64,000 nucleotides of DNA from Candidatus Acidiferrum sp. (GTDB taxonomy: Bacteria > Vulcanimicrobiota > Vulcanimicrobiia > Vulcanimicrobiales > Vulcanimicrobiaceae). The notes beneath the pieces were generated by a model. The model did not search any database. It had not been told where the DNA came from and worked only from the letters and a program-made list of their open reading frames with translations. The stretch is from positions 3,941 through 67,940 of the forward strand of contig DATJOM010000074.1 of the NCBI GenBank assembly GCA_035507095.1, written 5' to 3'. A program made the position numbers and the translations under genes. Below are positions 17,701 to 48,072 of this stretch, one piece after another (positions within the stretch are counted from its first letter, which is position 1; each line of letters opens with the position of its first letter).

Positions 17701-18717
17701 ATGTCAAAAACGATGCGGTGGTTAGTTACCGGCGGCCTCGGTTTCATCGGCTCGAATTTCGTCCGCCTCGCCCTCACCGAGCGGGCCGGCCTCGAAATCG
17801 TCAACCTCGATGCGATGACCTACGCCGGCAACCCGGCCAACTTGCGCGATGTCCAGACCGACAAGCGGTACCGCTTCGTCCATGGCGATATCTGCGATCC
17901 TCGCGCCGTGCGCGCGGCAATCGGCGAGGGCGTGGACGCCATCGTGAACTTCGCCGCCGAGACGCACGTCGATCGTTCGATCCTCGACCCCGAGCAGTTC
18001 TTGCGCACCGACATTCTCGGCACGCACGTCTTGCTCGAAGCGGTGCGCGAACGTTCGATCCCGCGTTACCTGCAAGTGTCAACCGACGAAGTCTACGGCG
18101 ACGTCGCCGAAGGTGAATCGACCGAGAACGACGCGCTGCAACCGCGCAGCCCGTATTCCGCGAGCAAGGCCGGCGGCGATCTCCAGGTGCTCGCCTATTG
18201 GACGACGTTCGGCACACCGGTGCTCATTACGCGCGGTAGCAATACGTACGGACCGTATCAATATCCCGAGAAGCTGATCCCCCTCTTCATCACCAACCTC
18301 ATCGACGACCAGCAGGTCCCGGTCTACGGCGATGGTCTGCAAGTGCGCGATTGGTTGCACGTCGAGGATCACGCGCGCGGGATCATGCACGTGCTCGAAC
18401 ACGGTGAGACCGGCAACATCTATAATGTCGGCGGCGGCAACCCGCATACGAACCTCGAGATTACGCGCCGTCTGGTTGGCGGTTGCGGTCGCGCGATGGA
18501 TACGCACGTGCGTCATGTGGCCGACCGTGAAGGGCACGACCGGCGCTACGCCGTGTCATGCGAGAAGGCCAACGCGATCGGGTGGACGCCGCGCGTCGGC
18601 TTCGAGCAGGGGTTGCGCGACACGATAGCGTGGTATCAAAAGCATGAAGACTGGTGGCGACCGCTCAAGTCCGGCGAATTTTTGGATTATTATAAAAGAC
18701 AGTATGCGCATAGATGA
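17701..18717 (+). CDS. rfbB: dTDP-glucose 4,6-dehydratase
   Basis: Real gene is the 3' part of the 646-aa ORF 16777..18717. ATG at 17701 ([22 protein letters not shown]). YSASKAGGD catalytic motif. Typical RmlB length. Confidence 0.92.
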
Positions 18718-18880
18718 GTAGTGCCGTCGACGTGGTCCCGATACCAAGTAACATGACGACCCTGACGTTCAATGGGCGCGCCCCAGGGGAACCTTTCGCT
18801 TACCAAGTTGTGTCGCGCGCCATGGTTTGGGGGCCCCACGAAGTGGGGGGCGCTGAGCCTCGGGCGGAGCGCCTTTCCAA

Positions 18881-19624
18881 ATGAAAGGCGTTATATTAGC
18901 GGGCGGCCTTGGGTCGCGGCTTCGGCCACTAACGAAAGTTACGAACAAACATCTCTTGCCGATCTACGACAAGCCGATGATCTACTATCCGATCGAGACG
19001 CTGTGCAGGGCCGGCATCAAAGACATCATGATCGTTACCGGCGGAAACTCGGCCGGCGACTTCCTGCGCTTGCTCGGGAACGGCAGAGACTTCGGCCTCA
19101 AGGATATCTACTACACGTATCAAGAGGGCGAGGGCGGCATCGCCGACGCGCTCAAGCTGTGCGAGCACTTTGCCGAAGGCCAGCGCATCGTCGTGATCCT
19201 GGGTGACAACATCATTCAAGACGACATCGGACCCTACGTACGCAAGTTTGAAGCACAAGATTCGGGAGCGCGCATCCTATTAAAGGAAGTCGACGATCCC
19301 GAGCGCTTCGGCTGCCCCGAACTCGACGGCGACCGGATCGTGCGCATTGAGGAGAAGCCTACCTCGCCCAAGAGCCGTTACGCCGTAACCGGCATCTACA
19401 TGTATGACCGGCGCGTTTTCGATCTCTGCAAGCGCCTCAAGCCTTCGGCGCGTGGCGAGCTCGAGATCACCGACGTCAACAATGCGTATATCAAGGAAGG
19501 CGATCTTTACTACGACGTGCTCGACGGCTGGTGGACCGACGCGGGACAGTTCGAGAGTCTCTACCGCGCCGCGCAACTCGTCGCGGAGAGCAAACTCTCG
19601 TTAGTCCCCGACGACCGCGTATGA
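18881..19624 (+). CDS. sugar-1-phosphate nucleotidyltransferase, short-form glucose-1-phosphate thymidylyltransferase-like
   Basis: MKGVILAGGLGSRLRPLT...NKHLLPIYDKPMIYYPIE... NTP_transferase fold. 247 aa (short RmlA-like form). Confidence 0.8.
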   Translation: MKGVILAGGLGSRLRPLTKVTNKHLLPIYDKPMIYYPIETLCRAGIKDIMIVTGGNSAGDFLRLLGNGRDFGLKDIYYTYQEGEGGIADALKLCEHFAEGQRIVVILGDNIIQDDIGPYVRKFEAQDSGARILLKEVDDPERFGCPELDGDRIVRIEEKPTSPKSRYAVTGIYMYDRRVFDLCKRLKPSARGELEITDVNNAYIKEGDLYYDVLDGWWTDAGQFESLYRAAQLVAESKLSLVPDDRV

Positions 19625-20401
19625 GATACGCGGTTCGAAAGGGAAACGCCGGAGGCGCCAACCCTGCAGCGAACCGCTTTTCTCCAATAGCGCAATCGTC
19701 TCGCCCGGGAACGTCTCTTCGTTGAGCTCGTCGAACACGACGACACCCCCCTTGGGCACGCGCGGCAAAAAACGCTCGAGCGCGATTCGCGTCGGTTCGT
19801 ACACGTCAAAATCCAAGTAGAGCAGACTAATGACGACGTGCGGATGCTCCTCGAGGAACCGCGCGCTCGTTTCGGCAAAATCGCCACGAACCAGCTTTAC
19901 TTTCGGGAAGTGGTTGAGCAAACGGTTCTGGTCGTAGAGATCGATCCAATTCAGCAAATCGGCGTGCGAATCGGGAGCAGCGAAGCCGCCGGGCTTTAAG
20001 TGGCCCGACTTGCGCTGCGTTCCGCGCAGATCTTGCTCCGACACCGACGTGAACCCGGTCCACGTATCGAATCCAAAGAGACGGCGCTGAAAGTTGTAGG
20101 GTTCGAGAATCGCGCTCAGTTGCGCGAATCCCATGAGGCCGCCACCCTGCAGCACGCCACACTCAACGATCGATCCCTGCACATCCTGGACGAGCTTGAA
20201 GAGTTCGTAGCGGGTTAGAAAGCGCGCAAGCGTTTGCCGCGGAACGTATTTGGCGAAATTCTCGAGCTTCTCGACATTCGAGCCCGGCGCGCTCTCGAAA
20301 GCCTCCTCGATGCGCATCCGCCACGTCACATCGCCGGGGGCTTGCGTTCCGGGATCGTGACTGTTCGCGGCCGGGTCGAGGGCGCCGTTTGCAGGACGCA
20401 C
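19601..20401 (-). CDS. TylF/MycF-type SAM-dependent sugar O-methyltransferase
   Basis: GSIVECGVLQGGGLMGF and LYLDFDVYEPTRIALERFLPRVPKGGVVVFDE resemble the macrocin-O-methyltransferase (TylF) family pattern. The 3' end overlaps the convergent rfbA-like gene by 24 nt. Confidence 0.72.
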   Translation of the reverse strand: MRPANGALDPAANSHDPGTQAPGDVTWRMRIEEAFESAPGSNVEKLENFAKYVPRQTLARFLTRYELFKLVQDVQGSIVECGVLQGGGLMGFAQLSAILEPYNFQRRLFGFDTWTGFTSVSEQDLRGTQRKSGHLKPGGFAAPDSHADLLNWIDLYDQNRLLNHFPKVKLVRGDFAETSARFLEEHPHVVISLLYLDFDVYEPTRIALERFLPRVPKGGVVVFDELNEETFPGETIALLEKSGSLQGWRLRRFPFEPRISYAVVGD

Positions 20402-20404
20402 GCG

Positions 20405-21292
20405 CTACGCTCCCGCCGCGGCCAAGACGCGTTCGCGCACGTCGTCCGGGATGGGTGAAAAATCTCGCGCCGAGATAAAATCGACGATCGTCGAACCCGT
20501 CGATGCGCTATCGATGTTCGGTGCACCGCGTTCGGCACGTACGTCGTCCAAGTTGACCGTGCGAAAGTCGATCGAAAACCGCGTCGCGTTCGTCGTGTTC
20601 GGAGCGGTCGCGTGCAACTGCGCGGACGAGAAGGCGACCATCGTTCCGGCGCTGGTCACAAAGCGTAAGCCTTCGCCTCGCAACGAGGCTTTCGGCACCG
20701 GATGGTTGCGCGTGTCCTTCGAGATTTGGCTCGTCGCCGCCGTCCGTCCGTTGTTTTGCCAGTCGGTGTAGTCGAACGAGGCCGATGAGTTCTCGAGCGG
20801 CACGTCCCAGTGTTCGGGGTGAAACACGAGCGCCTGGTCCGGTTGCAGCGCGTACACGGGGAACCACCAGTTGATTTGCTCGCTCGGCGCAGCGTACCAC
20901 GTGTCGCGGTGCGGCTTGTATGCGTAGCCAACACCCGAGGTGAGATAGCCCTGTGCGCTCACGACACGTAGACGCGGTACATCGAAGTAGGTCAGCTCGA
21001 TGTCGCAGCCGTGCTCCTCGAGCAGTGCGCGCATGAGTTCCTTCGTACGCAGGTCATTCGTGAAGCGCGACTTCAAGGGGCCCGCGATCTCGACGAACTG
21101 TTCGACCGCCATATCGTGCTGTGCGCTTTGTGGATTGCGCCCACCAAAGGCATCATCGATCAAGGCGATCGCATGTTCGCGAAGCGCCTTGATGGCAGGC
21201 GTCTCGGCAAAAAGGTAGATCCCACCGGCGAAGATTCGCTCGCGGCGGCCGGCGTCGGACGTGCTCCCGTTCAGAAAAATATCGGTCTGCAT
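20405..21292 (-). CDS. hypothetical protein, possible Fe(II)/2-oxoglutarate-dependent oxygenase (PhyH-like)
   Basis: Ordered motif pattern KPHRDTW (HxD) ... SSAQLHATAP (distal His) ... TRFSIDFR (RxS) at spacing compatible with a DSBH oxygenase. Pattern-level only. Confidence 0.4.
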   Translation of the reverse strand: MQTDIFLNGSTSDAGRRERIFAGGIYLFAETPAIKALREHAIALIDDAFGGRNPQSAQHDMAVEQFVEIAGPLKSRFTNDLRTKELMRALLEEHGCDIELTYFDVPRLRVVSAQGYLTSGVGYAYKPHRDTWYAAPSEQINWWFPVYALQPDQALVFHPEHWDVPLENSSASFDYTDWQNNGRTAATSQISKDTRNHPVPKASLRGEGLRFVTSAGTMVAFSSAQLHATAPNTTNATRFSIDFRTVNLDDVRAERGAPNIDSASTGSTIVDFISARDFSPIPDDVRERVLAAAGA

Positions 21293-21331
21293 ACCACCAG
21301 GTTATCGACCGGCCCAGAAGGCCGGTTTAGA

Positions 21332-22102
21332 CTAGCCGATACGCTGCAGCCAGGCCCCCGGCCATTGCGTGACACCGGACCTCAGTCCGGCGCTCTCGTC
21401 GAACGCCCAGGGCGGTTGACCCTCCGTGAACTCCGGGTGGGTGGCAAGAAAATCGCGGGCGGCTTCGTACGGGTTGTCGTGCAGCCAACCGTGCCCGGCG
21501 CGTGGAGAGTCGGCAACGTCGCGCATAATGCCGTCGGTCGCGACGATGTACGATCCCGGCGACACAAACGAGGCATAGGCTTCAAGTTCGGCGAGCACGT
21601 GCTTGCGCGTGTGGTTCGAATCGAGGAACACAATAGCCGTTTCGCCGGCGCGCATCAAAGCCCGAACTTTATCGAGCGTCGGCGCGGCAACCGAGTCACC
21701 CTCGATTAGCTCGATGCGCTTCTTGAGCTCGTGCGCTTCGAGCGCGGCACGGTTGTGCGGTCGAATCTCGACGTCGACACCGATCACTCGTCCGTGCCCC
21801 ATGGCCTCAAAGATGCTCGCGTAATAGACCAACGAACCGCCGTGCGCGATGCCCGTTTCGATCACGACATCAGGGCGCAAACGATAGAGCACCTCTTGCA
21901 CGCGAAACATATCGTCGGGCAACTGAATAATCGGGCGACCGAACCACGTGAACGTATAGAGGTATTTCGTCTCCCACGCACAGCGCATCCACAGTGACGA
22001 AAGGATCTCAAAAGCTTCAGGCGAGTCAAAGGCAAGCGTGCGTGACGCTCCGCCCTCCTCTATGACAACCTGTCGTAGGTTCGTGTCGATGGTAATTGCC
22101 AC
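21332..22102 (-). CDS. CmcI-family (cephalosporin hydroxylase-like) methyltransferase, rhamnosyl O-methyltransferase-like
   Basis: ORF 21332..22660 trimmed to the GTG at 22102, two bases after the upstream stop. Core FTWFGRPIIQLPDDMFRVQEVLYRLRPDVVIETGIAHGGSLVYYA...VFLDSNHTRKHVLAELEAY is typical of the CmcI family. Confidence 0.72.
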   Translation of the reverse strand: MAITIDTNLRQVVIEEGGASRTLAFDSPEAFEILSSLWMRCAWETKYLYTFTWFGRPIIQLPDDMFRVQEVLYRLRPDVVIETGIAHGGSLVYYASIFEAMGHGRVIGVDVEIRPHNRAALEAHELKKRIELIEGDSVAAPTLDKVRALMRAGETAIVFLDSNHTRKHVLAELEAYASFVSPGSYIVATDGIMRDVADSPRAGHGWLHDNPYEAARDFLATHPEFTEGQPPWAFDESAGLRSGVTQWPGAWLQRIG

Positions 22103-22104
22103 GG

Positions 22105-23274
22105 TTACACCGTTACCAACTGCGCGGAGCTTCCTATCTCCTTCAGCATTGCGGCACATTCGGTCAGGTAGTTCGGATTCATCACGTAGATGCGCTCCAG
22201 CTCCATCGCGGCAACTGCGGCCGGCGGGACGATGCGATGCGCGGAGCCGGCGATGAAACAGCCTTGCTTGTTCGGGTTGATATCGACGAGCGCCGCGATA
22301 AGGTTCCTGTTCGGGTCGACGAGATTCGCCATCGTTACGCCCTTCGCCGCCGCACCCCAAAGCGCGACGCGTCCCGCCATCGTGGAGATTTCCGCGTGCA
22401 GCTTCGCGCGACGTTCCGCTTCCTGGGCAGCGAAGACGCTGAGCCGATTGCGCAGTCCCGTATCGCGATCCCGGCGGAACGACTGCCCCGGCGCGTCGCT
22501 TGCGTGACCCTCGACCCAGAGAAATTGATCGCGCCAGATCGTGCGCACGCCGTCGACCGCCAGACCCGAACCCTCGAAAAGCGCGCGCATCGAACGGGCG
22601 CTCCAATAGTTGCAGTGTTCGTAGAAAATGTCCCAGAAGGCGGATTGTTCGAGGATCCAATCGATGCTCGGCGTTTCGAGGAAGAATCGCACCGCCGGCA
22701 TATCCTCGACCGCGCCAACGATCGAAGTGAGAAACGCACGCGGGTCGGGGATATGCTCGATCACGTGGCGGCTGAGCAGCGCGTCAGCATGCAAGTGCTT
22801 AACGGCCGGTCCAAACATCATCTGTTCGATCACGAGCCGGCCGCCGAGCGTTTCGCGCGGACCGGTATAGCTCGGATCGAAGCCGTAGCCGGTGACGCGG
22901 CTCCCAGCGCTGCTCACGAGTTGCCCGAGAAACTCACCTTTGCCGCATCCGACTTCGATGACCCTCGCGTCACGCAGACCACACGTATCGAGCATATAGG
23001 CGACGAGTTCGCCAATATATTTTGCATAGGTAGGCGAGGTCAACTGTGCATTGTCATAACGCTCGTCATACATCACGGCGGCCTCGTCGAACGCCCCGTT
23101 GAACACGAAGTCGCATTCCGCGCAGTGCACGAGCTCGATATCGCGCATCGCGATCGTGGCTGCGTCACGCTCATTCGAGAAGACGATATTTTGGTTGACC
23201 GGCACGCTCCGCCGTTCGAACACAACGGCGATGTCGACGGAATCGCACACGGGGCAGCGCTCGCGACTCGTCAC
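22105..23274 (-). CDS. SAM-dependent methyltransferase of the NDP-hexose C-methyltransferase (TylCIII-like) architecture
   Basis: N-terminal Zn-ribbon CPVCDS...HCAECDF. SAM motif VIEVGCGKGEF. C-terminal Rossmann-like VALWGAAAKGVTMANLV, typical of the C-methyltransferase C-terminal domain. Confidence 0.7.
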   Translation of the reverse strand: MTSRERCPVCDSVDIAVVFERRSVPVNQNIVFSNERDAATIAMRDIELVHCAECDFVFNGAFDEAAVMYDERYDNAQLTSPTYAKYIGELVAYMLDTCGLRDARVIEVGCGKGEFLGQLVSSAGSRVTGYGFDPSYTGPRETLGGRLVIEQMMFGPAVKHLHADALLSRHVIEHIPDPRAFLTSIVGAVEDMPAVRFFLETPSIDWILEQSAFWDIFYEHCNYWSARSMRALFEGSGLAVDGVRTIWRDQFLWVEGHASDAPGQSFRRDRDTGLRNRLSVFAAQEAERRAKLHAEISTMAGRVALWGAAAKGVTMANLVDPNRNLIAALVDINPNKQGCFIAGSAHRIVPPAAVAAMELERIYVMNPNYLTECAAMLKEIGSSAQLVTV

Positions 23275-24137
23275 ACGCCCTCACCCAAGAGGGATCGACG
23301 AAGCTGCGCGATGCCGGCGGGCAACTCGACGTCCGGCGCCCATCCGAGCTTGGAAAGGCGCGCTATGTCACCCACCACGTCGGGTTCGCGTTCGTTCATA
23401 CTGATGGTATCGGCAGGCGCGAGGAGGGCGCCCGCGAGCGACGCGACGTCGCGCAGGGCCGTCCCGGCGCCGCTTGCGACGTTGTATGCGCCGGGCGCTT
23501 CGAGGGCGGCCAGAAGCGCGAGGGCGCGCGCCGCATCATCGACGTGCACGAAATCGAGCCGCCGCTCCGGCTCGCGCAGCCGTGCCGGTTCGCCGTCGAT
23601 GCCGCTTCGAACCAGCGATGTCACCAATTTGTCGGGATCCTCGCCCGGGCCGTACACGAAGAACATGCGCGCCCAGGTAAAGCAGGCGCCATAGTGTTCG
23701 CAGGCAGCCGTGAGGTCGGACCAAAGCGCGGCTTTGGCCAAGCCGTACGCGGTTCGGGGACGAATCGCGGTGCGGTCTTCCACGAGCGTGCTGCCGTCCC
23801 AGTCGTATTCCGCGCACGTGCCCACGCCCAAAATAGCCTTGCCGCCCGTCACCAGAAACCGCTCGGCCAAGCTACTGCTGGCCACATGCCATGCTTGGTT
23901 GGCGGGGTCGCTCCAAAAGACGCCGTGTTCGGTCGTCCATGCCAAGAGCGCCAAATGCGTCGGAGCAATCGTCTCGAGCACGTCGCGCATACGGCGCGCA
24001 TCGAAGATGTCGCCCACAATCGTGTCGTTGGCCTCGGACCGCGAAAGGCAAAAAATCTCGTCGCCGCTACCGCGAAGTTGCTTGACGAAGCGCTTTCCGA
24101 TGAAGCCGGTTCCTCCCGCGACCAACCACCTTCGCAT
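23271..24137 (-). CDS. NAD(P)-dependent sugar epimerase/reductase (SDR, likely 4-ketoreductase)
   Basis: ORF 23271..24377 trimmed to the ATG at 24137 (MRRWLVAGGTGFIGKRFVKQL). YGLAKAA catalytic YxxxK. ATGA overlap with the next gene. Confidence 0.75.
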   Translation of the reverse strand: MRRWLVAGGTGFIGKRFVKQLRGSGDEIFCLSRSEANDTIVGDIFDARRMRDVLETIAPTHLALLAWTTEHGVFWSDPANQAWHVASSSLAERFLVTGGKAILGVGTCAEYDWDGSTLVEDRTAIRPRTAYGLAKAALWSDLTAACEHYGACFTWARMFFVYGPGEDPDKLVTSLVRSGIDGEPARLREPERRLDFVHVDDAARALALLAALEAPGAYNVASGAGTALRDVASLAGALLAPADTISMNEREPDVVGDIARLSKLGWAPDVELPAGIAQLRRSLLGEGV

Positions 24138-24139
24138 GA

Positions 24140-24733
24140 TTAGGGGTCGGGAAGTTCCGTTGCGTCGAGATACGGCAGGGTTTTGTCGCGCGGCGAAATC
24201 GACGTCACCGGCAACGGCCACGGAATCGCGAGCCGCGGATCGGCCCAATTGATGCCGCGCGCGGCCGATGGCGCGTACGGCGCTGAAATCATATATGCAA
24301 CGACTACGTGCGATTCCAATGTTTGATAGCCATGTGCGCAGCCCGGCGGAATATAGAGCGCCCGGTATGCTTCCCAATCGAGCGTGAAAGCCTCCCAGGC
24401 ACCGAAGGTCGCGCTCGAGCGACGCAGGTCGACGACGACGTCGTAGACGCTACCGTACGTGCATCGAACGATTTTCGCCTCGGGGGGATACCCGATTTGA
24501 TAGTGCAGACCGCGTAGCGTTCCGGCTAACGTGTTCGTCGCAATGCTGTGCTCCGGAAAATCTGCAATCAGACCGGCCTCTCGAAATAGCGCGCCGTCGT
24601 AGGTGCGCGCGAACGCGCCGCGATCGTCCGCGACCGGTTCCGACTCGACGATCGTAACCCCGGCGATGCGGGTGGCCGTAAGAATCAAAAGATCTCCAGC
24701 GCGGGCATCGCGCACACGAAGCGACCGCGCCAC
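24140..24733 (-). CDS. NDP-4-keto-6-deoxyhexose 3,5-epimerase (RmlC-like cupin)
   Basis: DDRGAFARTY...LRGLHYQ...AKIVRCTYGSVYDVVVDLR pattern of dTDP-4-dehydrorhamnose 3,5-epimerases. The start may lie downstream of 24733, because the ORF overlaps the upstream gene by 49 nt. Confidence 0.8.
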   Translation of the reverse strand: MARSLRVRDARAGDLLILTATRIAGVTIVESEPVADDRGAFARTYDGALFREAGLIADFPEHSIATNTLAGTLRGLHYQIGYPPEAKIVRCTYGSVYDVVVDLRRSSATFGAWEAFTLDWEAYRALYIPPGCAHGYQTLESHVVVAYMISAPYAPSAARGINWADPRLAIPWPLPVTSISPRDKTLPYLDATELPDP

Positions 24734-25914
24734 GAGCGCACGTTTGCGTTCTGCGCCACGATTTCATCGCGAATGTTCCATGGAAGAATCATCACAAAGT
24801 CGGGCTTGGCTTGGCCGAGGTACTCGGGACCGTAGACGGGGATGCGCGATCCAGGTAAGAGCGTACGCTGCTTCTCAGGATTGCGGTCGACGGTAAACGG
24901 CATCATGTCGGTACGAATCCCGCAATAATTGAGCAAGGTGTTGCCCTTGGCCGGCGCGCCGTATCCGGCGATCGTTTTTCTCTCGCCCGCCGCGCGCAGA
25001 AAGAATGCAAGGACCTCGCGCTTCTTGGCACGCACGCGCTCTTCGAACGACCGATAGATGTCCGGCTGATGCAAGCCGCGTTCGCGTTCTAGCGTGCGTA
25101 GCATCGCGACCGCGGGCAACTCCTCGCGCGCATCCGCCTCACGAACGATCCAATAGCGTAGCGAGCCCCCGTGCGTGGCCAGGCGATCGACGTCCCACAG
25201 GCGCAAGCCGTGCCGTCGCAGCACGTCTTCCATCGTTAGTAACGAGAAATACGAGAAATGCTCGTGATAGATCGTATCGAATTGCACGCCGTCGATGAGC
25301 GCGAGCAGATGCGGGATCTCGACCGTAATCGTGCCCTGGGGAGCCATCAGCGCTTCGAGCCCATCGATGAAATCGTGAAGGTCCGGCACATGCGCGATAA
25401 CGTTATTCGCTGCGACGAGCGCAGCCGCGCCGCGCGAATCCCGGATGCGCCGCCCGGTCTGGGCTCCCAAAAACGCTACTTCAGTCGGCACGCCCCGCTC
25501 CCGCGCAATCGCGGCCACGTTCGCGGCCGGCTCCACGCCATACGCCGTGAAGCCGCGCTCCACGAAGTATTGCAGCAGGTAGCCGTCGTTGCTCGCCGCC
25601 TCGGCAACGATGGCATCGGCCCGCAACGCCAGTCGTTCGATCGCACGATCGACATAGGCTCGGGAATGCGCGAGCCATGAGTCCGAGAACGAAGAAAGAT
25701 ACGCATAGTGCGAAAAGATATGCTCCGGCGGCTCGAATGCCGGCAATTGCACGAGGAAGCACACGTCGCAAACGCGTGGGTGGAGCGGATAGAACGGTTC
25801 CATCTCGCCCGCGCGATCCAATGGTATGTACGAGTTGGAAAGTGGCGAGACGCCCAGATCGACGAACGTTGTGGAAACCGGGGCGTCACAATTGCGGCAG
25901 CGAAAGTCGCTCAT
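24685..25914 (-). CDS. NDP-hexose C-methyltransferase (TylCIII-like)
   Basis: ORF trimmed to the ATG at 25914 (MSDFRCRNCDAPVSTTFVDLGVSPLSNSY... Zn-binding N-domain). SAM domain, and a C-terminal AGYGAPAKGNTLLNYCG domain. ATGA overlap with the rfbG stop. Confidence 0.8.
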   Translation of the reverse strand: MSDFRCRNCDAPVSTTFVDLGVSPLSNSYIPLDRAGEMEPFYPLHPRVCDVCFLVQLPAFEPPEHIFSHYAYLSSFSDSWLAHSRAYVDRAIERLALRADAIVAEAASNDGYLLQYFVERGFTAYGVEPAANVAAIARERGVPTEVAFLGAQTGRRIRDSRGAAALVAANNVIAHVPDLHDFIDGLEALMAPQGTITVEIPHLLALIDGVQFDTIYHEHFSYFSLLTMEDVLRRHGLRLWDVDRLATHGGSLRYWIVREADAREELPAVAMLRTLERERGLHQPDIYRSFEERVRAKKREVLAFFLRAAGERKTIAGYGAPAKGNTLLNYCGIRTDMMPFTVDRNPEKQRTLLPGSRIPVYGPEYLGQAKPDFVMILPWNIRDEIVAQNANVRSWRGRFVCAMPALEIF

Positions 25915-26981
25915 TGCTGCAAATATTCGCCGATCTGTGCGAGCGTCGTAGCGCGAACGTCGCCACCGGATAGCTGCGCTTTGTACCACACGGAAGTCCA
26001 CGCTACCGTCATATCGAGATCCAATTTCCCGCGCCATCCCAGAAGCTCATGCGCCTTGGTCGAGTCGAGGCGCAGTTGCGCAGCCTCATGCGGTCGTTCG
26101 TCGCCGTCGACCTCGATGCGCGCGGGCTTGCCGAGTCCTTCGAAGATCGCTGTGGCCAATTCTCGCACCGTGACGTGCGCCGAGCCGTCCGGACCGAAGT
26201 TCCACGCTCCACTGTCGCCGCGGTCGAGCGACATCGCGAGCATGAGGTACCCCACGAGCGGTTCGAGCACGTGCTGCCACGGCCGAACGGCGTTTGGAAA
26301 GCGCAATACGAGCGGCCGACCTGCCGCAACCGAGCGGATGATATCGGGCACTAAGCGATCGCTGGACCAATCGCCGCCGCCAATCACGTTCCCGGCGCGA
26401 GCGCTCGCGATACGCAGCTCAGAGGAGCCGTAGGACGCAGCATACGCATGCGTGACGAGTTCGGCCGCCGCCTTGCTACTACTATATGGGTCCTCGCCGC
26501 CGAGCGGCTCGTCTTCGCGGTAGCCCCAGATCCATTCACGGTTGCGGTAACACTTGTCGCTGGTAACGACAACGACGCCACGAACGCTTGGGGTCGAACG
26601 CGCAGCCTCGAGCAGGTGGGCCGTGCCGAGCACGTTCGTCGCGAAGGTCTCCACCGGCCGTTCGTAGCCGGCCCGAACCAGCGATTGCGCGGCAAGGTGA
26701 AAAATATATTCCGGCTTGACGCTTGCGATCCAACCTGCGACCGCGCTCTCGTCGCGAATGTCGTTGATGCGCGATTCGACGTCCGCGCTTAGATCAAGCA
26801 GGTCGTGGAGATTCGGTTGTGTAGGCGGAACCAACGCATACCCGCTAACCCGGGCTCCAAGATGCAACAGCAGCTCGCAAAGCCAGGCCCCTTTGAAGCC
26901 GGTGTGTCCGGTCACGAGAACGCGGCGGCCTTTCCAATACCCGGGAAGGTCCGCGCCGCGATTGGGACGATAGGATGGCAT
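25911..26981 (-). CDS. rfbG: CDP-glucose 4,6-dehydratase
   Basis: ORF trimmed to the ATG at 26981 (MPSYRPNRGADLPGYWKGRRVLVTGHTGFKGAWL...). YSSSKAAAE catalytic motif. Confidence 0.88.
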   Translation of the reverse strand: MPSYRPNRGADLPGYWKGRRVLVTGHTGFKGAWLCELLLHLGARVSGYALVPPTQPNLHDLLDLSADVESRINDIRDESAVAGWIASVKPEYIFHLAAQSLVRAGYERPVETFATNVLGTAHLLEAARSTPSVRGVVVVTSDKCYRNREWIWGYREDEPLGGEDPYSSSKAAAELVTHAYAASYGSSELRIASARAGNVIGGGDWSSDRLVPDIIRSVAAGRPLVLRFPNAVRPWQHVLEPLVGYLMLAMSLDRGDSGAWNFGPDGSAHVTVRELATAIFEGLGKPARIEVDGDERPHEAAQLRLDSTKAHELLGWRGKLDLDMTVAWTSVWYKAQLSGGDVRATTLAQIGEYLQQ

Positions 26982-26982
26982 T

Positions 26983-27753
26983 ATGCAGGCCGTGATTCTA
27001 GCCGGAGGCCTCGGTACCCGCATCTCCGAGGAAACGCACCTTCGCCCGAAACCGATGATCGAAATCGGTGGCGAACCCATTTTGTGGCATTTGATGAAGC
27101 TGTATTCGCACTACGGAATCAACGATTTCATCATCTGCCTCGGATACAAGGGCTACTTCATCAAAGAGTATTTCCATAACTACGCCCTTCACATGTCCGA
27201 TGTCACCATCGATCTGCGAGATAGTTCACTGACGGTCCACGAATCGACCGCGGAACCCTGGCGCATCACACTCGTCGATACCGGCGCCGAAACGCTGACG
27301 GGTGGCCGCCTTCGGCGTGTGCGCTCGTATCTGCAAGATGGTCCGTTTTGTTTTACGTACGGCGACGGCTTGAGCGATGTGAACATCGCCGAGCTGGTTG
27401 CGTACCATCGCAGCCAACGCCGCCTCGCAACGCTGACCGCGGTGCAACCACCGGGACGTTTCGGCGCAATCGTCCTTAACGCGGGCCGCGTCACGTCATT
27501 CCGGGAGAAGGCCGACGCCAGCGACGCCTGGATCAATGGCGGTTTCTTTGTGCTCGAGCCCGGCGTGATCGACTACATCCAGGGTGACGACACCGCGTGG
27601 GAAGCCCAGCCGCTCGAACGGCTGGCTGCCGAGGATCAACTCTCGGCATTTCAGCATCGCGGCTTCTGGCATCCGCTCGATACGCTGCGAGACAAAACGA
27701 TACTCGAGGCGCTTTGGGCAAGCGGCTCGCCGCCCTGGCGCCCCTCCGACTAG
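26983..27753 (+). CDS. rfbF: glucose-1-phosphate cytidylyltransferase
   Basis: MQAVILAGGLGTRISEETHLRPKPMIEIGGEPILWHLMKLYSHYGINDFIICLGYKGY, canonical RfbF. Its start codon is back-to-back with divergent rfbG (1-nt spacer). Confidence 0.92.
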   Translation: MQAVILAGGLGTRISEETHLRPKPMIEIGGEPILWHLMKLYSHYGINDFIICLGYKGYFIKEYFHNYALHMSDVTIDLRDSSLTVHESTAEPWRITLVDTGAETLTGGRLRRVRSYLQDGPFCFTYGDGLSDVNIAELVAYHRSQRRLATLTAVQPPGRFGAIVLNAGRVTSFREKADASDAWINGGFFVLEPGVIDYIQGDDTAWEAQPLERLAAEDQLSAFQHRGFWHPLDTLRDKTILEALWASGSPPWRPSD

Positions 27754-27769
27754 TGCCGATATATCAAGG

Positions 27770-30667
27770 GTGACCTCGCCGCACGCTGCGCCGATAGACG
27801 GCGTCAGCATCCTGATTACCTCGTACAACTACGCAAGCTATCTCCCGCGGGCGATCGCGAGCGCGCGCGCGCAAGAGGCCCCCAATCTCGAGATCGTCAT
27901 CGTCGACAATGCGTCGACCGACGCATCGTGGGATATAATTCAAGCTTCCGCAGCCGAAGACGCGCGAATCCGGCCGTTTCGTAACGATACGAACGTCGGC
28001 CCGCTCGGCAACCATATGCGCGCCGCCGAGCACGCCCGTCACGAGCGCCTCTTGTATCTGGCCGCCGACGACGTCTTCTTCCCCGGACATCTCACGACGT
28101 TGCTCGGCGCGCACGCGGCGCAACCCGACATCGATTATTTCTTCACGTCCTATGTAAAGATCGATGATGACGACCGGTTTCTCGCGTTCTTTGGCCATAC
28201 CGGGCACTTGCGGGCACCGTACGCAGGCGGTCGAAACGAATTCGCCGATCTGCTGACCTACGATTGCTACGCGTGCTTTCCCACGACGCTCTGCCGGCGT
28301 AGCGATCTCCTCGCGCATCCTTTCGGTGACGAGATCCTCGCAGCCGACCTTGACTACTATCTGCGCCTTGCATCCGAAGGCAAGCGCTTTGGTTTCATCA
28401 ATCGCGCGGGCATGGCGATCCGTCTCCACGAGAATGAGCTCTCCGGACACGAGCGTTACGTGACAACCGGGCGGCAACTCACCGATCATGTGCTGCTTCT
28501 CGAACGGCACCTCGTTCCCAGCAACAACCACCTCATCGCAGGGCGCGAAGACGGCATCCTTCGGCTGCTCAAAGCAAAGATCGACAATCTCGTCGCCTAT
28601 CCAGCGCGCTTTAACGAGCTTGCCGCGGACCTCGCACCGCGGATCAAAGTGATTGAAGAACGGCTTCTCGCTTCACGCGCGCGCACGCATCGCGGTGCGC
28701 TTTCCAATCCAACGGTCAGCGTCGTCCTGTTGTGCGACGACGACGTCCAGGCTTGCGTCGCGGCCGCACAGGCGCTGGCCGCGCAGGATTACGAACGCAA
28801 AGAGATCATCGCGGTCCATCGCGGTCACGTCGACACATCGAAGCTACTCGCGGGCGCGCTGCGCCACGTAAGCGCGAACATCATGGTCCAAGGTCCGGCC
28901 TATTCACAAGCCGTCTCGTGGAACGACGCGCTGCGGCTCTGTAACGGTGAGGTCGTCGTCTACGCGGATCGCTTGACGTCGTGGCAACCCGGCCACCTTC
29001 GGCGCCTTGCGGGACATTTCGAAAAAAACGACATTGACGTTGTGTTGGTCCGTGGGGACGCGCTGTTCACGCGCGGCGGCCTCGATGCAATACGTTTCGA
29101 CCACTTCTACGGCGGTGCGTTCGCCGAGGACGCCGCCGTCGGCGAAGGCGTTCCACTTGCAACCGTGGCACACCGTCGTTCGCTCGTCGACGAGGTCGGA
29201 GGGATTGAAGAACAGCTCCCAATGCTCGCAGAGTTCGATTTCGTCGCGCGTCTGGTTACCGGTCGCAAGATCGGCGTTGATACCGAGCTGACCGTCACGC
29301 TTCGCAAACCGCTCGAAACGCCGCATCCCGCGATTGCGAATCCGAATGCGTACCTTTCGGCACTACAGCAGCTCTTTAAGGCGAGGCAAATCGCCGGACC
29401 GATCGGCGAGCGACGCGCGCTGCACCTGCGGCGCGTGCAAGCGTCGCTCCAAGCCTTCGTTGCGAACAAGACGAACGACGCGGCGACCGCGTTCTTGCGC
29501 ACGGCGCGCGGTCTGGTCGAGCCGGCAACCCGGCACGAAGGTGACCGGCCGCGCATCCTCGTCATCGATGACCTCGTACCATACGACGAACTCGGGCGGG
29601 GGTATCCGCGGGCGCGCAAGCTGCTCGAGAGCCTGCGCGACGGCGGCTACGACGTGCTCTTCTATCCGCTGGTTACGCCAAAAGATACACCGCCACTCGA
29701 CTATGGCATCCCGGGCATCGAACCACTCTACGGCCGGGGCCCGGAGCTGCTCGCACTTACGCTCGCCGAGCTCTTGCCCACGCTCGACGCGCTGTGGGTC
29801 AGCCGCCCGCATAATATGAAGTCGGTGCTCGAATCGCTTGCGTCGCTGGGCATCACCGAGCGTCGCTGGGGCTTCATCTACGATGCCGAGGCGATCTATG
29901 TCGAGCGTCACGCCGTGCAGGCAGAACTCGCCGGCAGACCGATACCGAAAACCGAGTACGAAGCATATCTCACCGAAGAGCTGCGCCTCACCGACGCATG
30001 CGACGCTGTCTCCGTCGTCTCCGCAGCCGATCGCGCGACGTTCGGGCAACGCTTTAAGGGACCGATCGAGACGATCTCGTTTTCAAACGCGGCTGCGCCG
30101 ACGAACGCGCCCTTCGCGCAGCGCGACGGCGCGCTCTTCGTCGGTGCCGTCGAACCGGGCAGTCCGAACGAGGATTCCCTGCTGTGGTATTGCGAGCACG
30201 TTGCGCCGCGTGTCGCGGCGACGCTCGGCTCGCCCGTGCGACACGCCGGCGTCATGGCCTCCGAGCGCGTGCGCGCCTATTCGCCCGAACGCGTCACACT
30301 TCTCGGTCTCGTGCCCGACCTGCGACCCGTCTACGAGCGCGCGCGCATCTTCATCGCGCCGACGCGTTTCGCTGCGGGACTTCCGCAAAAAGTGTACGAG
30401 GCGGCGGCGCACGGCGTCCCCGTGATCGTCACGCCGCTGCTCGCTCGCCAACTCGGCTGGAAAGACGGCGAGGAGTTACTCGTTGCGGAGACACCCGACC
30501 AGTGGGTCGCGGCGATCGAGCGGCTTTATACCGACGCAGCGTTGTGGCAGCGGTTGCGCGAGCGGGCGCTCGAAGCCGTGCGCCGCAGCGTCGCACCCGA
30601 TGCGTTTTCGGCAAGCGTCCTTCGCGTCGTCAGCGAAGCGCTTTCGGCCAGAAAGGCCTCAGCCTAG
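27770..30667 (+). CDS. three-domain glycosyltransferase (GT2 - GT2-like - GT4/GT1-like)
   Basis: ORF 27584..30667 trimmed to the GTG at 27770. Domain 1: VSILITSYNYASYLPRAIASARAQ...IVIVDNASTD...AADD. Domain 2: VSVVLLCDDDVQACVAAAQALAAQDY...IIAV. C-terminal RILVIDD...GLPQKVYEAAAHGVPVIVT is a GT4-type segment. Confidence 0.8.
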   Translation: MTSPHAAPIDGVSILITSYNYASYLPRAIASARAQEAPNLEIVIVDNASTDASWDIIQASAAEDARIRPFRNDTNVGPLGNHMRAAEHARHERLLYLAADDVFFPGHLTTLLGAHAAQPDIDYFFTSYVKIDDDDRFLAFFGHTGHLRAPYAGGRNEFADLLTYDCYACFPTTLCRRSDLLAHPFGDEILAADLDYYLRLASEGKRFGFINRAGMAIRLHENELSGHERYVTTGRQLTDHVLLLERHLVPSNNHLIAGREDGILRLLKAKIDNLVAYPARFNELAADLAPRIKVIEERLLASRARTHRGALSNPTVSVVLLCDDDVQACVAAAQALAAQDYERKEIIAVHRGHVDTSKLLAGALRHVSANIMVQGPAYSQAVSWNDALRLCNGEVVVYADRLTSWQPGHLRRLAGHFEKNDIDVVLVRGDALFTRGGLDAIRFDHFYGGAFAEDAAVGEGVPLATVAHRRSLVDEVGGIEEQLPMLAEFDFVARLVTGRKIGVDTELTVTLRKPLETPHPAIANPNAYLSALQQLFKARQIAGPIGERRALHLRRVQASLQAFVANKTNDAATAFLRTARGLVEPATRHEGDRPRILVIDDLVPYDELGRGYPRARKLLESLRDGGYDVLFYPLVTPKDTPPLDYGIPGIEPLYGRGPELLALTLAELLPTLDALWVSRPHNMKSVLESLASLGITERRWGFIYDAEAIYVERHAVQAELAGRPIPKTEYEAYLTEELRLTDACDAVSVVSAADRATFGQRFKGPIETISFSNAAAPTNAPFAQRDGALFVGAVEPGSPNEDSLLWYCEHVAPRVAATLGSPVRHAGVMASERVRAYSPERVTLLGLVPDLRPVYERARIFIAPTRFAAGLPQKVYEAAAHGVPVIVTPLLARQLGWKDGEELLVAETPDQWVAAIERLYTDAALWQRLRERALEAVRRSVAPDAFSASVLRVVSEALSARKASA

Positions 30668-30672
30668 CACCC

Positions 30673-31686
30673 GTGCGGACCTGTATCGTTCACATCGGCA
30701 CGCATAAGACCGGAACGACCTCGCTCCAGGTGTTCATGGCGCAGAATCGCACGACATTAGCGTCCGCCGGCCTGTACTTGCCCGACGCCGGCCGGCCTGC
30801 GCAAATCCCGATTGGGAATCATCAGTTGGCCTGGGATCTCCTCATGCGGGGCGAGAGCAAGGATCTGCCGTTGCTGACCGATGAGTTACGGAAGAACACG
30901 ATCGAGGGCGCCCTGATTACATCCGAAGATTTCGATCGTCTTCACGTCCGCCCCGAGACGATCGAACGTCTTGCCGAGGCGATCCGGTCCGCGGGTTACG
31001 TGCCGAAAGTCGTGGTCTATTTTCGACCGCAAGCCGGTTATGCAGAGTCCATTTACGTCGAGATGATCAAGCACGGCCACGTTCATCCGCTCGCAAACTT
31101 CCTCGAGCCTAGCATCTCGAACGGAATGTACCGACAGGGCGACTCACCGGTCGTCATGGATTTTTTGTATACGCGAATTCTCGAGCCCTGGGTTCGAGTG
31201 TTCGGGAAAGAACATGTAATCGTCCGAGCCTACGATCCCGCACGCGCGAGCGAGCACATCTTCCAGGATTTCTTCAACGTGCTCATGCAGGCCGTTCCCG
31301 GCTTCGGCCGCAAGCCCTTAGAGCTCGCAGTCAGTCAACCGCGCGCAAACGACAGCCTGACATTCGGTGCCTTGCTCGACACAGCGTTTGCGAAGCTATT
31401 CCCCCATGGCCGTCCGGAAGCCGAGCCGCGCGGACTACTGCGTTCCAAGCTTCCAGACTTTCCGGCCGATCTTTTAAATGCGCGCTACGCGCTCTTCTCG
31501 CGCGATGAGACGCTCAAGCTGCTCGCAGCGCTGGGTCCCGACAATGCGGTCATCGAGCGAGAGTACGGCGCACATATCGGCTTTCAAAACGAGCGCGATA
31601 TTGCTCCGCAAGACGATCCTGTCTGGCGAAAAGCAACGGTAGAACGCGCGATCTTCGATCAATTCCTTGCGCTCTGGACGTCCTAG
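30673..31686 (+). CDS. putative PAPS-dependent sulfotransferase
   Basis: ORF 30184..31686 trimmed to the GTG at 30673, 6 nt after the GT stop. (M)RTCIVHIGTHKTGTTSLQ resembles the 5'-PSB loop, and VVVYFRPQAGYAES sits in the 3'-PB position. About 337 aa. Confidence 0.62.
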   Translation: MRTCIVHIGTHKTGTTSLQVFMAQNRTTLASAGLYLPDAGRPAQIPIGNHQLAWDLLMRGESKDLPLLTDELRKNTIEGALITSEDFDRLHVRPETIERLAEAIRSAGYVPKVVVYFRPQAGYAESIYVEMIKHGHVHPLANFLEPSISNGMYRQGDSPVVMDFLYTRILEPWVRVFGKEHVIVRAYDPARASEHIFQDFFNVLMQAVPGFGRKPLELAVSQPRANDSLTFGALLDTAFAKLFPHGRPEAEPRGLLRSKLPDFPADLLNARYALFSRDETLKLLAALGPDNAVIEREYGAHIGFQNERDIAPQDDPVWRKATVERAIFDQFLALWTS

Positions 31687-32444
31687 AAAAATAGACGGAC
31701 GCCCACGATCACCAATATCAGCGAAAGCCCGACGCGAAAGGCACGTTCGGGGAGGCGCTTCGCAAGCGGCGTCCCGACGAGCACGCCCGGAATCGAACCT
31801 GCAAGCAGCAGCCCCGCGAGCCGCACGTTTACATCGCCCAGTTTGAAGTGACCGATAATCGCCGGCACGAGCAAGACCACGGCAAAGGCCACATCGGTAC
31901 CGACCAGCGTGCGTAGCTGAGCTTGCGAGAGCACGAGCAAGAGCAGCGGCAGGGTCAGTGACCCGCTGCCGATCGAAGTGATACTGACCAGCGTCCCGAC
32001 CACGAAGCCCGTGACCACGAGCGGCACGTGCGGCAGCGCCTGCGGCGGCGCGTCTTTGTCGGCCGCGATCGATTTCGTGAACGCGACCGCGGCAGCGGCA
32101 ACGAGCAAGGCGACGCCGAGCGCGATACGTAGCACGTGATTTACCGTGCCGAGCGGGAGATGCGCATGCAGCCATCCGGTGATCAAGACGCCAACGATCG
32201 CGCCGGGTACGCCACCCAGCGAGAGAAAGAGCAGCGCACCGTAATGCACGGTTTGCGCGCGCATGTGCGTAAGGAATGCAACGATCTTCGTGCCGAGGCT
32301 AAAGAGCAGGTCCGAACCGATCGCGGTGCTCGCGTTGTAGCCGAGAAACAAAACGATGAGCGGCGTCGTAAGCGAGCCGGCTCCGACGCCCGAATATGAG
32401 ATGCACAAGCCGACGATGAACCCGACGAGAATCGTCTGAATCAT
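31683..32444 (-). CDS. TSUP (TauE/SafE) family anion permease
   Basis: 253 aa and about 8 hydrophobic helices, with the two-repeat pattern typical of the TauE/SafE family. 4-nt overlap with the cysNC stop. Confidence 0.78.
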   Translation of the reverse strand: MIQTILVGFIVGLCISYSGVGAGSLTTPLIVLFLGYNASTAIGSDLLFSLGTKIVAFLTHMRAQTVHYGALLFLSLGGVPGAIVGVLITGWLHAHLPLGTVNHVLRIALGVALLVAAAAVAFTKSIAADKDAPPQALPHVPLVVTGFVVGTLVSITSIGSGSLTLPLLLLVLSQAQLRTLVGTDVAFAVVLLVPAIIGHFKLGDVNVRLAGLLLAGSIPGVLVGTPLAKRLPERAFRVGLSLILVIVGVRLFF

Positions 32445-34273: not shown

Positions 34274-35073
34274 ATGTACCCCGTGGTGCGCAAACGTTCG
34301 AACGCGTCTTCGCTCTCGTTGTCCATGGCACGGCCGGCGCGTTCCGGTTCGCGCGTCACTTCCAACTCAGCGATGATCTTCTCGAGCGTGTCGGCATTGC
34401 TCGCAATCGGAAACGTGATGTTGCTTTCCCCGAGCGAGCGAAAGCGCTTCCCCGCCTTCGCAAGATACAGCGGAACGTATGGAATCTGCTCGCGCAACGT
34501 GTAGCGCCAGATGTCCAGCTCGGTCCAATGCAAGAGCGGATGGATTCGCACGTGTGCGCCATCCGGCACGTCGTATGCATAGTAATCCCACAGTTCGGGC
34601 GGTTGTCCGCGCGGATCCCACGAACCGTCGGCGTTGCGCGGGCTGAAGATCCGCTCTTTCGCGCGAATCGCCTGTTCGTCGCGCCGAATGCCGAGAATGA
34701 TACCGCGATAGCCTTCACGCGCGAGCAGCGCGCGCAAACCCGCCGTCTTGCGCGCGGCGTGACGCGCTGCCGGCGGCAAGGTTTGATCGACACTGCTCTC
34801 CGGCGGACATAGTTCATTTGCGACCGGGAGATTCCACTGCGTAACCAAGCGGTCGCGGAACGCGTAGACCTCCTCGAACTCCATGCCCGTGTCGAGCAGC
34901 ACGACCGGAAACGGCACCTCGCCGAGGAAGGCCTTACGGACCATCCACAACAGTGCGGTCGAGTCTTTGCCGATCGACCACAGCATCGCAAGCGGTGAGA
35001 CGCACGAGAAGGCTTCACGCAGGATGAAGATCGTGCGTGCTTCGAGTTCGTCGAGGTAGTCGAGGCGGGACAT
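34270..35073 (-). CDS. cysD: sulfate adenylyltransferase subunit 2 (NodP-like)
   Basis: PAPS_reduct-fold CysD pattern (SIGKDSTALLWMVRKAF...; C-terminal ...DNESEDAFERLRTTGYM). 4-nt overlap with the cysNC start. Confidence 0.92.
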   Translation of the reverse strand: MSRLDYLDELEARTIFILREAFSCVSPLAMLWSIGKDSTALLWMVRKAFLGEVPFPVVLLDTGMEFEEVYAFRDRLVTQWNLPVANELCPPESSVDQTLPPAARHAARKTAGLRALLAREGYRGIILGIRRDEQAIRAKERIFSPRNADGSWDPRGQPPELWDYYAYDVPDGAHVRIHPLLHWTELDIWRYTLREQIPYVPLYLAKAGKRFRSLGESNITFPIASNADTLEKIIAELEVTREPERAGRAMDNESEDAFERLRTTGYM

Positions 35074-41579: not shown

Positions 41580-41607
41580 TTTTCGACCTACACGGCCGCC
41601 TATTTTA
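41580..41607 (-). promoter_or_regulatory. sigma-28 (FliA/SigD)-like promoter candidate for flaG-fliD-fliS
   Basis: Minus strand TAAA-N16-GTCGAAAA (6 of 8 to GCCGATAA). Same 16-nt spacing as the fliC candidate. The leader then has three GGA motifs (cGGAagaagcgGGAgaaGGAtt) before the ATG. Confidence 0.4.
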
Positions 41608-46172: not shown

Positions 46173-46180
46173 CGGATGGG

Positions 46181-48046: not shown

Positions 48047-48072
48047 CCTAGTGGTTATCGGCAGAATGCAAC

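Follow-up and report, generated by a model that had tools for sequence, protein, structure and literature searches.

Which sugar is made by a compact set of eight minus-strand genes at positions 19601-26981 of a 64,000-nucleotide stretch of contig DATJOM010000074.1 (Candidatus Acidiferrum sp.), and to which cell structure is that sugar delivered? The whole stretch, which comes from an 83.9-kb soil metagenome contig, is called the window below. Its source, an uncultured soil bacterium, probably belongs to the Eremiobacterota/Vulcanimicrobiota; names in the EF-Ts cluster at 90% identity disagree (Candidatus Aquilonibacter of the Vulcanimicrobiota against Candidatus Acidoferrum). The reading favoured here, with a confidence somewhat above even, is that the eight genes (G1 to G8) together with the divergent gene rfbF form a self-contained, horizontally shared cassette for a 6-deoxyhexose that is activated with cytidine diphosphate (CDP), branched, hydroxylated and O-methylated, and that is meant for a strain-variable surface glycan. 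The product sugar is probably undescribed so far, and the glycan is probably sulfated and possibly carried on flagellin. The nine genes are as follows.

26983-27753, plus strand: rfbF, glucose-1-phosphate cytidylyltransferase (TIGR02623), first gene of the divergent operon
25911-26981, minus strand: G1, CDP-glucose 4,6-dehydratase (rfbG; TIGR02622, Rossmann motif VLVTGHTGFKG)
24685-25914, minus strand: G2, nucleoside diphosphate (NDP)-hexose C-methyltransferase of the TylCIII/TcaB9/MtmC type (Pfam Methyltransf_13, _23 and _14)
24140-24688, minus strand: G3, RmlC-like 3,5- (or 5-) epimerase (PF00908 dTDP_sugar_isom), TTG start, 182 amino acids
23271-24137, minus strand: G4, short-chain dehydrogenase/reductase (SDR), probable NDP-4-ketohexose reductase (PF01370 Epimerase, E-value 6e-30; GxxGxxG and YxxxK)
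22105-23274, minus strand: G5 (CMT2), second and divergent member of the C-methyltransferase fold (Methyltransf_23 and partial Methyltransf_14)
21332-22102, minus strand: G6, methyltransferase of the CmcI / rhamnosyl-O-methyltransferase family (PF04989 RMNT_CmcI)
20405-21292, minus strand: G7, Fe(II)/2-oxoglutarate (2OG) oxygenase of an unnamed PhyH-fold family (HxD...H...RxS; fold)
19601-20401, minus strand: G8, TylF-family sugar O-methyltransferase (PF05711)

The eight open reading frames (ORFs) of the minus strand are all present with their stops as given in the earlier note, which was made from the letters alone, and each of its eight family assignments was reproduced by Pfam and NCBIfam profiles and by sequence and fold comparison. 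One start codon had to be moved. The epimerase start proposed earlier (24733) would create a 49-nt overlap with G2 and was rejected in favour of the TTG at 24688, which is favoured by the gene caller and by homologues of 183 amino acids. The longer start given for G6 is backed by homologues of 266-267 amino acids, against the 218 amino acids of the gene caller.

The activation of the sugar is the firmest part of the answer. Both rfbF and G1 scored above their equivalog cutoffs, the former with 438.3 bits on TIGR02623 against 300.25 (residues 1-253 of 255 aligned) and the latter with 440.2 bits on TIGR02622 against 278.45. Family membership shows that rfbF converts glucose-1-phosphate to CDP-glucose and that G1 converts CDP-glucose to CDP-4-keto-6-deoxy-D-glucose. 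The epimerase G3 passes the Pfam dTDP_sugar_isom model PF00908 (E-value 1.4e-53, 181.5 bits) and falls just under the RmlC equivalog TIGR01221 (152.4 against 155.75 bits); it is therefore described as RmlC-like, which would suit a substrate that is CDP-linked or branched. For G4, an extended SDR, the solved structures closest in sequence were those of MoeE5 and GDP-6-deoxy-D-lyxo-4-hexulose reductase.

The branching step was examined through G2, which has the complete three-domain architecture, with Methyltransf_13, _23 and _14 all above the Pfam cutoff. Full-length matches were obtained to MtmC (E-value 1.6e-82), KijD1 (1e-73) and TcaB9 (2.5e-66). The alignment revealed the zinc-binding Cys4 set and equivalents of all five TcaB9 residues Y76, H181, Y222, E224 and H225, the catalytic residue names of TcaB9 having been confirmed from mutant entries in the PDB. 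G2 is thus a close full-length relative of TcaB9, KijD1, MtmC and TylCIII. Those enzymes use 2,6-dideoxy or 3-amino sugars linked to deoxythymidine diphosphate (dTDP), whereas the donor of the cassette is CDP-linked and not 2-deoxygenated.

The oxygenase G7 scored below the gathering threshold of Pfam PhyH (17.8 against 22 bits), and a sequence search of the PDB with G7 gave no meaningful match. Across 28 homologues with 47-58% identity to G7, no variation was seen at H128-x-D130, H227 and R238-x-S240. The AlphaFold2 (AF2) model of G7 has a mean predicted local distance difference test (pLDDT) score of 91.9, and Foldseek related it with probability 1.0 to SptF, AndA, PtlH, EvdO1, FtmOx1 and PhyH at template modelling (TM) scores of 0.4-0.5 and 9-15% identity. 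The invariant facial triad, the 2OG-binding RxS and the PhyH-type fold bear out what had been proposed as a putative 2OG oxygenase. Chemistry of this fold on carbohydrate C-H bonds is represented by EvdO1, AviO1 and HygX of the orthosomycins, EvdO1 being among the fold matches, and KdoO hydroxylates 3-deoxy-D-manno-octulosonic acid (Kdo) on lipid A. G7 differs from these enzymes in having just 9-15% identity to any solved member, in forming its own family and in its genomic tie to nucleotide-sugar C-methyltransferases.

This tie was quantified from gene neighbourhoods. The G7 family has no Pfam model and comprises 1240 clusters at 50% identity (E-value up to 1e-3), 211 of them at E-values up to 1e-30, and relatives occur in at least 579 genomes in a scan of one genome per species; among these hits the best 80 loci were looked at. 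A C-methyltransferase lies near the G7-type oxygenase in 64 of 79 loci. Where at least 8 kb was available on both sides, 48 of 56 loci have one within 10 kb of the oxygenase, directly adjacent in 22 cases. These counts argue that the family is functionally tied to C-methylated nucleotide sugars. The cassette of the window is one conserved elaboration of a core made of oxygenase, C-methyltransferase and RmlC. Actinomycetes and cyanobacteria carry a different cassette on the same core, with PIG-L, DUF4910/DUF2172/HTH_47 and Wzx genes; this second type was seen in Nonomuraea, Streptosporangium, Planobispora and Nostoc (loci L006, L016, L021-L023, L037, L039, L048 and others). Many actinomycete carriers of the G7 family belong to genera that contain madurose (3-O-methylgalactose); madurose as the linking product was dropped since the family also occurs in Mycobacteria, Rhodococcus and cyanobacteria and its chemistry is unsuited.

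Two O-methyltransferase-type enzymes complete the set. G8 matches PF05711 (E-value 1.4e-11, 44.6 bits against a gathering score of 23), is 59-69% identical across phyla and has as its closest solved relative CalS11, a TDP-rhamnose 3'-O-methyltransferase (6e-38, full length). Like the presumed role of G8, CalS11 of the calicheamicin pathway acts on a nucleotide 6-deoxyhexose before transfer; its pathway and nucleotide differ from those of the cassette, where the nucleotide is CDP. G6 matches PF04989 strongly (E-value 1.8e-67, 227.5 bits against a gathering score of 23.2) and CmcI itself at 9e-9, and it lies far below the rhamnosyl O-methyltransferase equivalog NF045824 (83.4 against 400 bits). 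By these scores G6 is placed in the rhamnosyl O-methyltransferase superfamily and is predicted not to be the same enzyme.

The same genes were found to recur together in distant organisms. Among the best 80 loci, those of Chloracidobacterium, Blastocatellia, Acidobacteria gp1, Terriglobia, Burkholderiales and Verrucomicrobia have all nine genes, rfbF included, and partial sets on short contigs are present in Kapaibacterium, Acidimicrobiales and Bacteroidota (Chitinophagaceae, Pedobacter). By larger groups, the nine-gene set covers Acidobacteriota, Xanthomonadales, Burkholderiales and Verrucomicrobia. In Arenimonas oryziterrae the order is rfbF-rfbG-RmlC-CMT-SDR-CMT2-CmcI-Wzx-oxygenase-TylF. 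In one metagenomic organism the set adjoins the rpsB-tsf-pyrH-frr operon, as in the window, with two sulfotransferase-like genes behind it. Blocks are arranged differently from locus to locus, and the pairs oxygenase to TylF and CMT2 to CmcI are invariant. Other genomes thus share the cassette with this one, and the loci compared place it in at least four and perhaps as many as seven phyla. The enzyme families are all known; what is new is their combination, its conservation across phyla, the link of the oxygenase to branched sugars and the genomic setting. The search of open-access literature gave no text that connects the gene set, or the G7 family, with a known sugar or product, nor one in which an identical cluster is already tied to a known sugar.

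The tight spacing described earlier was also found, the junctions from G1 to G8 measuring -4, -4, +2, -4, +2, +39 and +3 nt, with 4-nt overlaps of ATGA (G1/G2), TTGA (G2/G3) and GTGA (G4/G5). The call of a single operon is based on this spacing and on the gene order conserved in other genomes, as the scans for promoters and terminators were uninformative: between 17000 and 31800 the promoter scan gave 4 promoter-like sites against 3.0 expected and the terminator scan 19 terminator-like sites against 14.6 expected, neither better than shuffled sequence. No GC anomaly was seen over the cassette (GC 0.60-0.63), so composition gives no sign of recent transfer, and no Rfam family reached its gathering score anywhere in the whole window. 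The ATG of G1 (26981, minus strand) and that of rfbF (26983, plus strand) stand back to back with one base between them, and therefore the promoter and ribosome-binding region of each operon lie inside the coding sequence of the other. In other genomes rfbF and rfbG are co-directional, with rfbF ahead of rfbG; in the window they are divergent. At the other end, G8 on the minus strand and the rmlA-like gene on the plus strand run towards each other and share their last 24 nt (19601-19624).

The following pathway is proposed for the enzymes. After formation of the 4-keto intermediate, G2 would C-methylate next to the keto group, at C3 by analogy with TcaB9, KijD1 and MtmC, and G3 would epimerise C5 to give the L series. 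G5, which keeps the catalytic base, would add a second methyl group, most plausibly at C5 as the other acidic position; NovU methylates C5 in noviose biosynthesis. G4 would reduce the 4-ketone. G7 would hydroxylate a C-H bond of the C-methylated sugar, the preferred guess being the new methyl branch. G8 and G6 would then O-methylate hydroxyls, G8 probably on the nucleotide sugar. As the oxygenase and TylF genes are always adjacent, G8 may target the hydroxyl made by G7. Hydroxylation followed by O-methylation is the logic of CmcJ and CmcI in cephamycin biosynthesis, and the partner here is a TylF-type enzyme. All eight enzymes would act on one sugar.

The destination of the sugar was approached from the genes on both sides of the cassette. 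The earlier note had viewed the eight genes without the context on one side, which consists of the divergent operon of rfbF, a glycosyltransferase and a sulfotransferase-like gene, the genes for 3'-phosphoadenosine-5'-phosphosulfate (PAPS) and the flagellar filament genes. On the other side are rmlB with its short rmlA-like neighbour and the rpsB operon.

17713-18717, plus strand: rmlB (TIGR01181), conserved frame
18881-19624, plus strand: short rmlA-like nucleotidyltransferase, 247 amino acids, conserved frame
27770-30667, plus strand: three-domain glycosyltransferase of 965 amino acids (GT2, GT2 and GT1/GT4-like at residues 12-138, 255-497 and 732-938; Pfam, NCBIfam)
30673-31686, plus strand: putative sulfotransferase of 337 amino acids (N-terminal HKTGTTSL), third gene of the rfbF operon
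31683-35073, minus strand: TauE-family exporter, and CysN/CysC fusion and CysD for PAPS synthesis (Pfam), conserved frame
35171-38309, between the PAPS genes and fliS: AAA_16 ATPase, DUF11-repeat protein of 479 amino acids and GT2-like protein of 262 amino acids
38686-49418, minus strand: fliS, fliD, flaG-like gene, protein of 657 amino acids without assignment, GT2-GT2 protein (865 amino acids), GT2-TPR protein (621 amino acids) and flagellin (48144-49418) (Pfam)

It had been claimed that both activation routes, CDP and dTDP, are present. The CDP route stands, with rfbF and rfbG above their cutoffs as given above. For the dTDP route, rmlB passes (430.8 bits on TIGR01181 against 365.1) and the short rmlA-like protein does not (247.8 bits on TIGR01207 against 360.65). 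Both genes are constant members of the frame and lie outside the variable cassette. A 56-residue ORF is wedged between them (18714-18884) with a 4-nt overlap on each side; it has no family match and no counterpart in the related locus L090, which has just 3 nt between rmlB and the rmlA-like gene.

Comparison with two relatives (L089 and L090) revealed a conserved frame around a variable segment. The relatives keep the frame, with identities of 98% for rpsB, 87% for FliS, 89-93% for TauE, 87-88% for CysNC, 82-92% for CysD and 71-91% for AAA_16, and in L090 of 89% for rmlB and 93% for the rmlA-like gene. The segment matching 19601-31686 of the window, about 12 kb, is replaced or strongly diverged. 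In L089 it contains a C-methyltransferase, RmlC, a DegT aminotransferase, a hexapeptide acyltransferase and other glycosyltransferases, and the only sugar genes of the segment in L090 are rfbG, rfbF, a CmcI-type gene and RmlC. The 965-residue glycosyltransferase is 31-45% identical in the relatives and the 337-residue sulfotransferase-like protein 54-59%. From these comparisons, the segment of about 12 kb has the pattern of a serotype-like variable glycan locus.

Sulfation of the glycan is suggested by the neighbouring genes. CysD scored 302 bits on NF003587 (cutoff 195) and the APS-kinase domain 207 bits on TIGR00455 (cutoff 138.7). The 337-residue protein has no direct Pfam or PDB match; its remote homologues carry Sulfotransfer_1/_3 or are named sulfotransferase, the closest named homologue being from Candidatus Baltobacteraceae. 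The placement of a dedicated PAPS supply beside this protein suggests that the glycan is sulfated. In the related cassette L007, two Sulfotransfer_2-like genes (10712-12099) stand in place of the 337-residue type; a tblastn search with these two proteins against the window gave no significant match, and therefore the candidate sulfotransferase of the window is of a different family. In the proposed scheme the 965-residue glycosyltransferase would build the glycan and the 337-residue protein would sulfate it with PAPS from the adjacent CysD and CysNC, the acceptor probably being flagellin or some other structure of the cell surface with a strain-dependent glycan.

For flagellin as acceptor, the variable sugar and glycosyltransferase genes lie near flagellin, fliD and fliS, which is the gene layout of a flagellin glycosylation island. 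Such islands are known in Pseudomonas, Campylobacter and Clostridioides, where, as in the window, a strain-variable block of sugar and glycosyltransferase genes stands beside flagellin, fliD and fliS; the type of sugar, the PAPS and sulfotransferase module and the phylum of the window would be new for such islands. Genes for a flippase, a polymerase, an ABC transporter or an initiating phosphoglycosyl transferase were not seen in the approximately 58 kb for which genes were called. Given this lack of export genes and the position of the island, it is reasonable, if unproven, to read it as a flagellar glycosylation island. Beside flagellin (41605-49418) stand the GT2-TPR protein, the 865-residue GT2-GT2 protein and the 657-residue protein without family match as candidate flagellin-modifying enzymes. 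A fliW-csrA pair lies between flgL and flagellin (49827-50324 and neighbouring genes; 7744-8501 in L004), followed by hook and rod genes; this pair is a flagellin-feedback regulatory module in Bacillus and other non-enteric lineages.

The strongest alternative, given a probability somewhat short of even, is that the sugar of the cassette goes into a polysaccharide of the cell envelope, be it O-antigen-like, a capsule or an exopolysaccharide, and that the flagellar neighbourhood of the cassette is coincidental. It draws on the Wzx-type flippases and polysaccharide glycosyltransferases that accompany the Arenimonas and actinomycete versions, on the presence of uppS in the neighbouring housekeeping operon and on the resemblance of the 965-residue protein to polymerising glycosyltransferases. 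The C-terminal domain of that protein matches PEP-CTERM/XrtA families below the cutoff, as does the AAA_16 protein, which resembles an XrtA/PEP-CTERM-associated ATPase (123.9 bits, cutoff 324.5). The AAA_16, DUF11-repeat and 262-residue GT2-like genes are conserved in L089. Against it, the export and initiation functions were missing from the approximately 58 kb, fliS and fliD frame the island in three related genomes and a GT2-TPR protein resembling peptide glycosyltransferases adjoins flagellin, its best NCBIfam match being the SunS peptide S-glycosyltransferase (100.6 bits, below the cutoff).

Within the favoured pathway, the role of G5 decides whether the sugar would bear one C-methyl branch or two. 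By sequence G5 matches MtmC with an E-value of 1.9e-14, and the Pfam Methyltransf_13 (zinc-domain) model gave no match in it. TcaB9, MtmC, G2 and G5 were aligned with 18 homologues of G5, giving 19 sequences of the G5 family. All 19 retain the cysteines of the zinc site, four in number, and residues equivalent to TcaB9 Tyr76, His181, Glu224 and His225, the last being the proposed base. The Tyr222 position is Phe in 18 of the 19, and G5 forms a subfamily separate from the TcaB9-type enzymes. The AF2 model of G5 (pLDDT 93.7) was superposed by Foldseek on MtmC, KijD1 and TcaB9 with a TM score of 0.82 over about 410 columns; the next methyltransferases scored below 0.4. The conserved residues and the superposition indicate that G5 represents a genuine subfamily of paralogues within the sugar C-methyltransferase fold, with the three-domain architecture, zinc site and catalytic His/Glu retained, in which carbon is the presumed site of methylation. 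The result is in accordance with the expectation that both C-methyltransferase-like proteins share this fold and do not fall into unrelated families. By analogy with the solved enzymes, G2 and G5 would both transfer methyl to carbon of an NDP-4-ketohexose.

The alternative, that the fold of G5 was recruited for O- or N-methylation or for a non-catalytic role, would leave the sugar with a single C-methyl branch. The near-constant Phe, the unmatched zinc-domain profile, an identity of just 18-22% to the solved C3-methyltransferases and the change of the sugar-binding stretch YPYHSS to YDNAQL in G5 all fit it. Set against the complete retention of the zinc ligands and catalytic residues and against the preserved architecture, it is rated less likely than not, while retaining a substantial share of the probability.

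A further question is whether the product of the cassette is a sugar already known. CDP-vinelose of Azotobacter vinelandii, described in the literature of the 1960s, is 6-deoxy-3-C-methyl-2-O-methyl-L-talose. It shares with the cassette CDP activation, 6-deoxygenation, a C-methyl branch, epimerisation and reduction in the L series and O-methylation, which correspond to rfbF, G1 to G4 and one O-methyltransferase. The second enzyme of the C-methyltransferase fold, the 2OG oxygenase and the second O-methyltransferase exceed what vinelose needs. No genes assigned to vinelose and no open-access vinelose paper were found. In the noviose pathway (NovT, NovW, NovU, NovS and NovP), a 4-keto-6-deoxyhexose is C5-methylated by a TylCIII-type enzyme, epimerised and reduced, with TylF-family O-methylation later; it differs from the cassette in being dTDP-linked, with a single C-methylation and no oxygenase, and NovP matches G8 weakly (E-value 4e-4). 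TylCIII-type enzymes acting on NDP-4-keto-6-deoxyhexoses are also reported for 3-C-methyl-rhamnose (Burkholderia andropogonis, where it occurs in O-antigen, and Azorhizobium; PMC7203242) and for virenose in the O-antigen of Coxiella (PMC3539893). These are branched 6-deoxyhexoses of surface polysaccharides, like the proposed product; dTDP or GDP routes were proposed for them and, unlike in the cassette, there is no second C-methyltransferase, oxygenase or multiple O-methylation.

On this basis the product could be a known sugar of the CDP-vinelose or 3-C-methyl-rhamnose/evalose type, made by G1 to G4 and one O-methyltransferase, with G5, G7 and one of G6 and G8 tailoring other residues or capping the glycan. 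Those five enzymes are exactly what such a sugar requires, 3-C-methyl-6-deoxyhexoses occur in the bacterial O-antigens just named, and contigs of Kapaibacterium have smaller sets without CMT2. The pairs CMT2 to CmcI and oxygenase to TylF, though, accompany the core genes in every full-length example even where the glycosyltransferase and export genes differ, and such constant co-travel fits action on a shared sugar and not on lineage-specific glycans. CalS11, the solved enzyme nearest to G8, has a nucleotide sugar as its substrate, and identities of 47-58% for the oxygenase across phyla are expected for a small, conserved substrate. A known product is accordingly regarded as rather improbable. 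That the sugar made by the cassette is destined for a small-molecule natural product with a glycosyl group, as could be thought from the antibiotic deoxysugar origin of all the solved relatives closest to G2, G5 and G8 (MtmC, KijD1, TcaB9, CalS11), is highly implausible and was rejected, as no polyketide, non-ribosomal peptide or other scaffold genes occur in the window or related loci, the associated transferases are GT2/GT4 polysaccharide types and CDP activation is as for O-antigen dideoxyhexoses.

The reading of a self-contained cassette for a CDP-activated, branched sugar has several points to answer. Members of the CmcI family, such as the mycobacterial rhamnosyl O-methyltransferase, act after glycosyl transfer, so that not all eight enzymes need act on one nucleotide sugar. 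With Phe for Tyr222 and an altered sugar-pocket motif, G5 could methylate oxygen, nitrogen or another substrate. The steps past the 4,6-dehydratase are what we infer, as are the regiochemistry of both C-methyltransferase-type enzymes, the substrate of the oxygenase and the sequence of the reactions. The promoter and terminator scans neither support nor contradict a single operon. The flagellin link is one of proximity only, and the Wzx-type flippase within the Arenimonas cassette means that the sugar is not inherently flagellar; the weak PEP-CTERM/XrtA matches of the 965-residue glycosyltransferase and of AAA_16 point to exopolysaccharide families. The most detailed form of the proposal is an undescribed CDP-6-deoxyhexose with two C-methyls (C3 and C5), an extra hydroxyl and two O-methyls, made with the first Fe(II)/2OG family known to act on a nucleotide sugar, and sulfated and attached to the flagellin of an uncultured Eremiobacterota-like bacterium from a strain-variable island. 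Taken with all its parts, it is held with low confidence.

Branched, methylated deoxysugars are rare; on bacterial surfaces they influence antigenicity, hydrophobicity and recognition by phages or hosts. With the cassette, found in soil and freshwater lineages, there is a defined route to a sugar that is probably new, and Arenimonas oryziterrae DSM 21050 is a cultured carrier of it. If the reading is true, the G7 family would extend Fe/2OG chemistry to the tailoring of nucleotide sugars and would serve as a new genomic marker for branched-sugar pathways. The variable island with its own PAPS supply would then be a first view of the diversity of surface or flagellar glycans in the Eremiobacterota, a group with very few cultured members.

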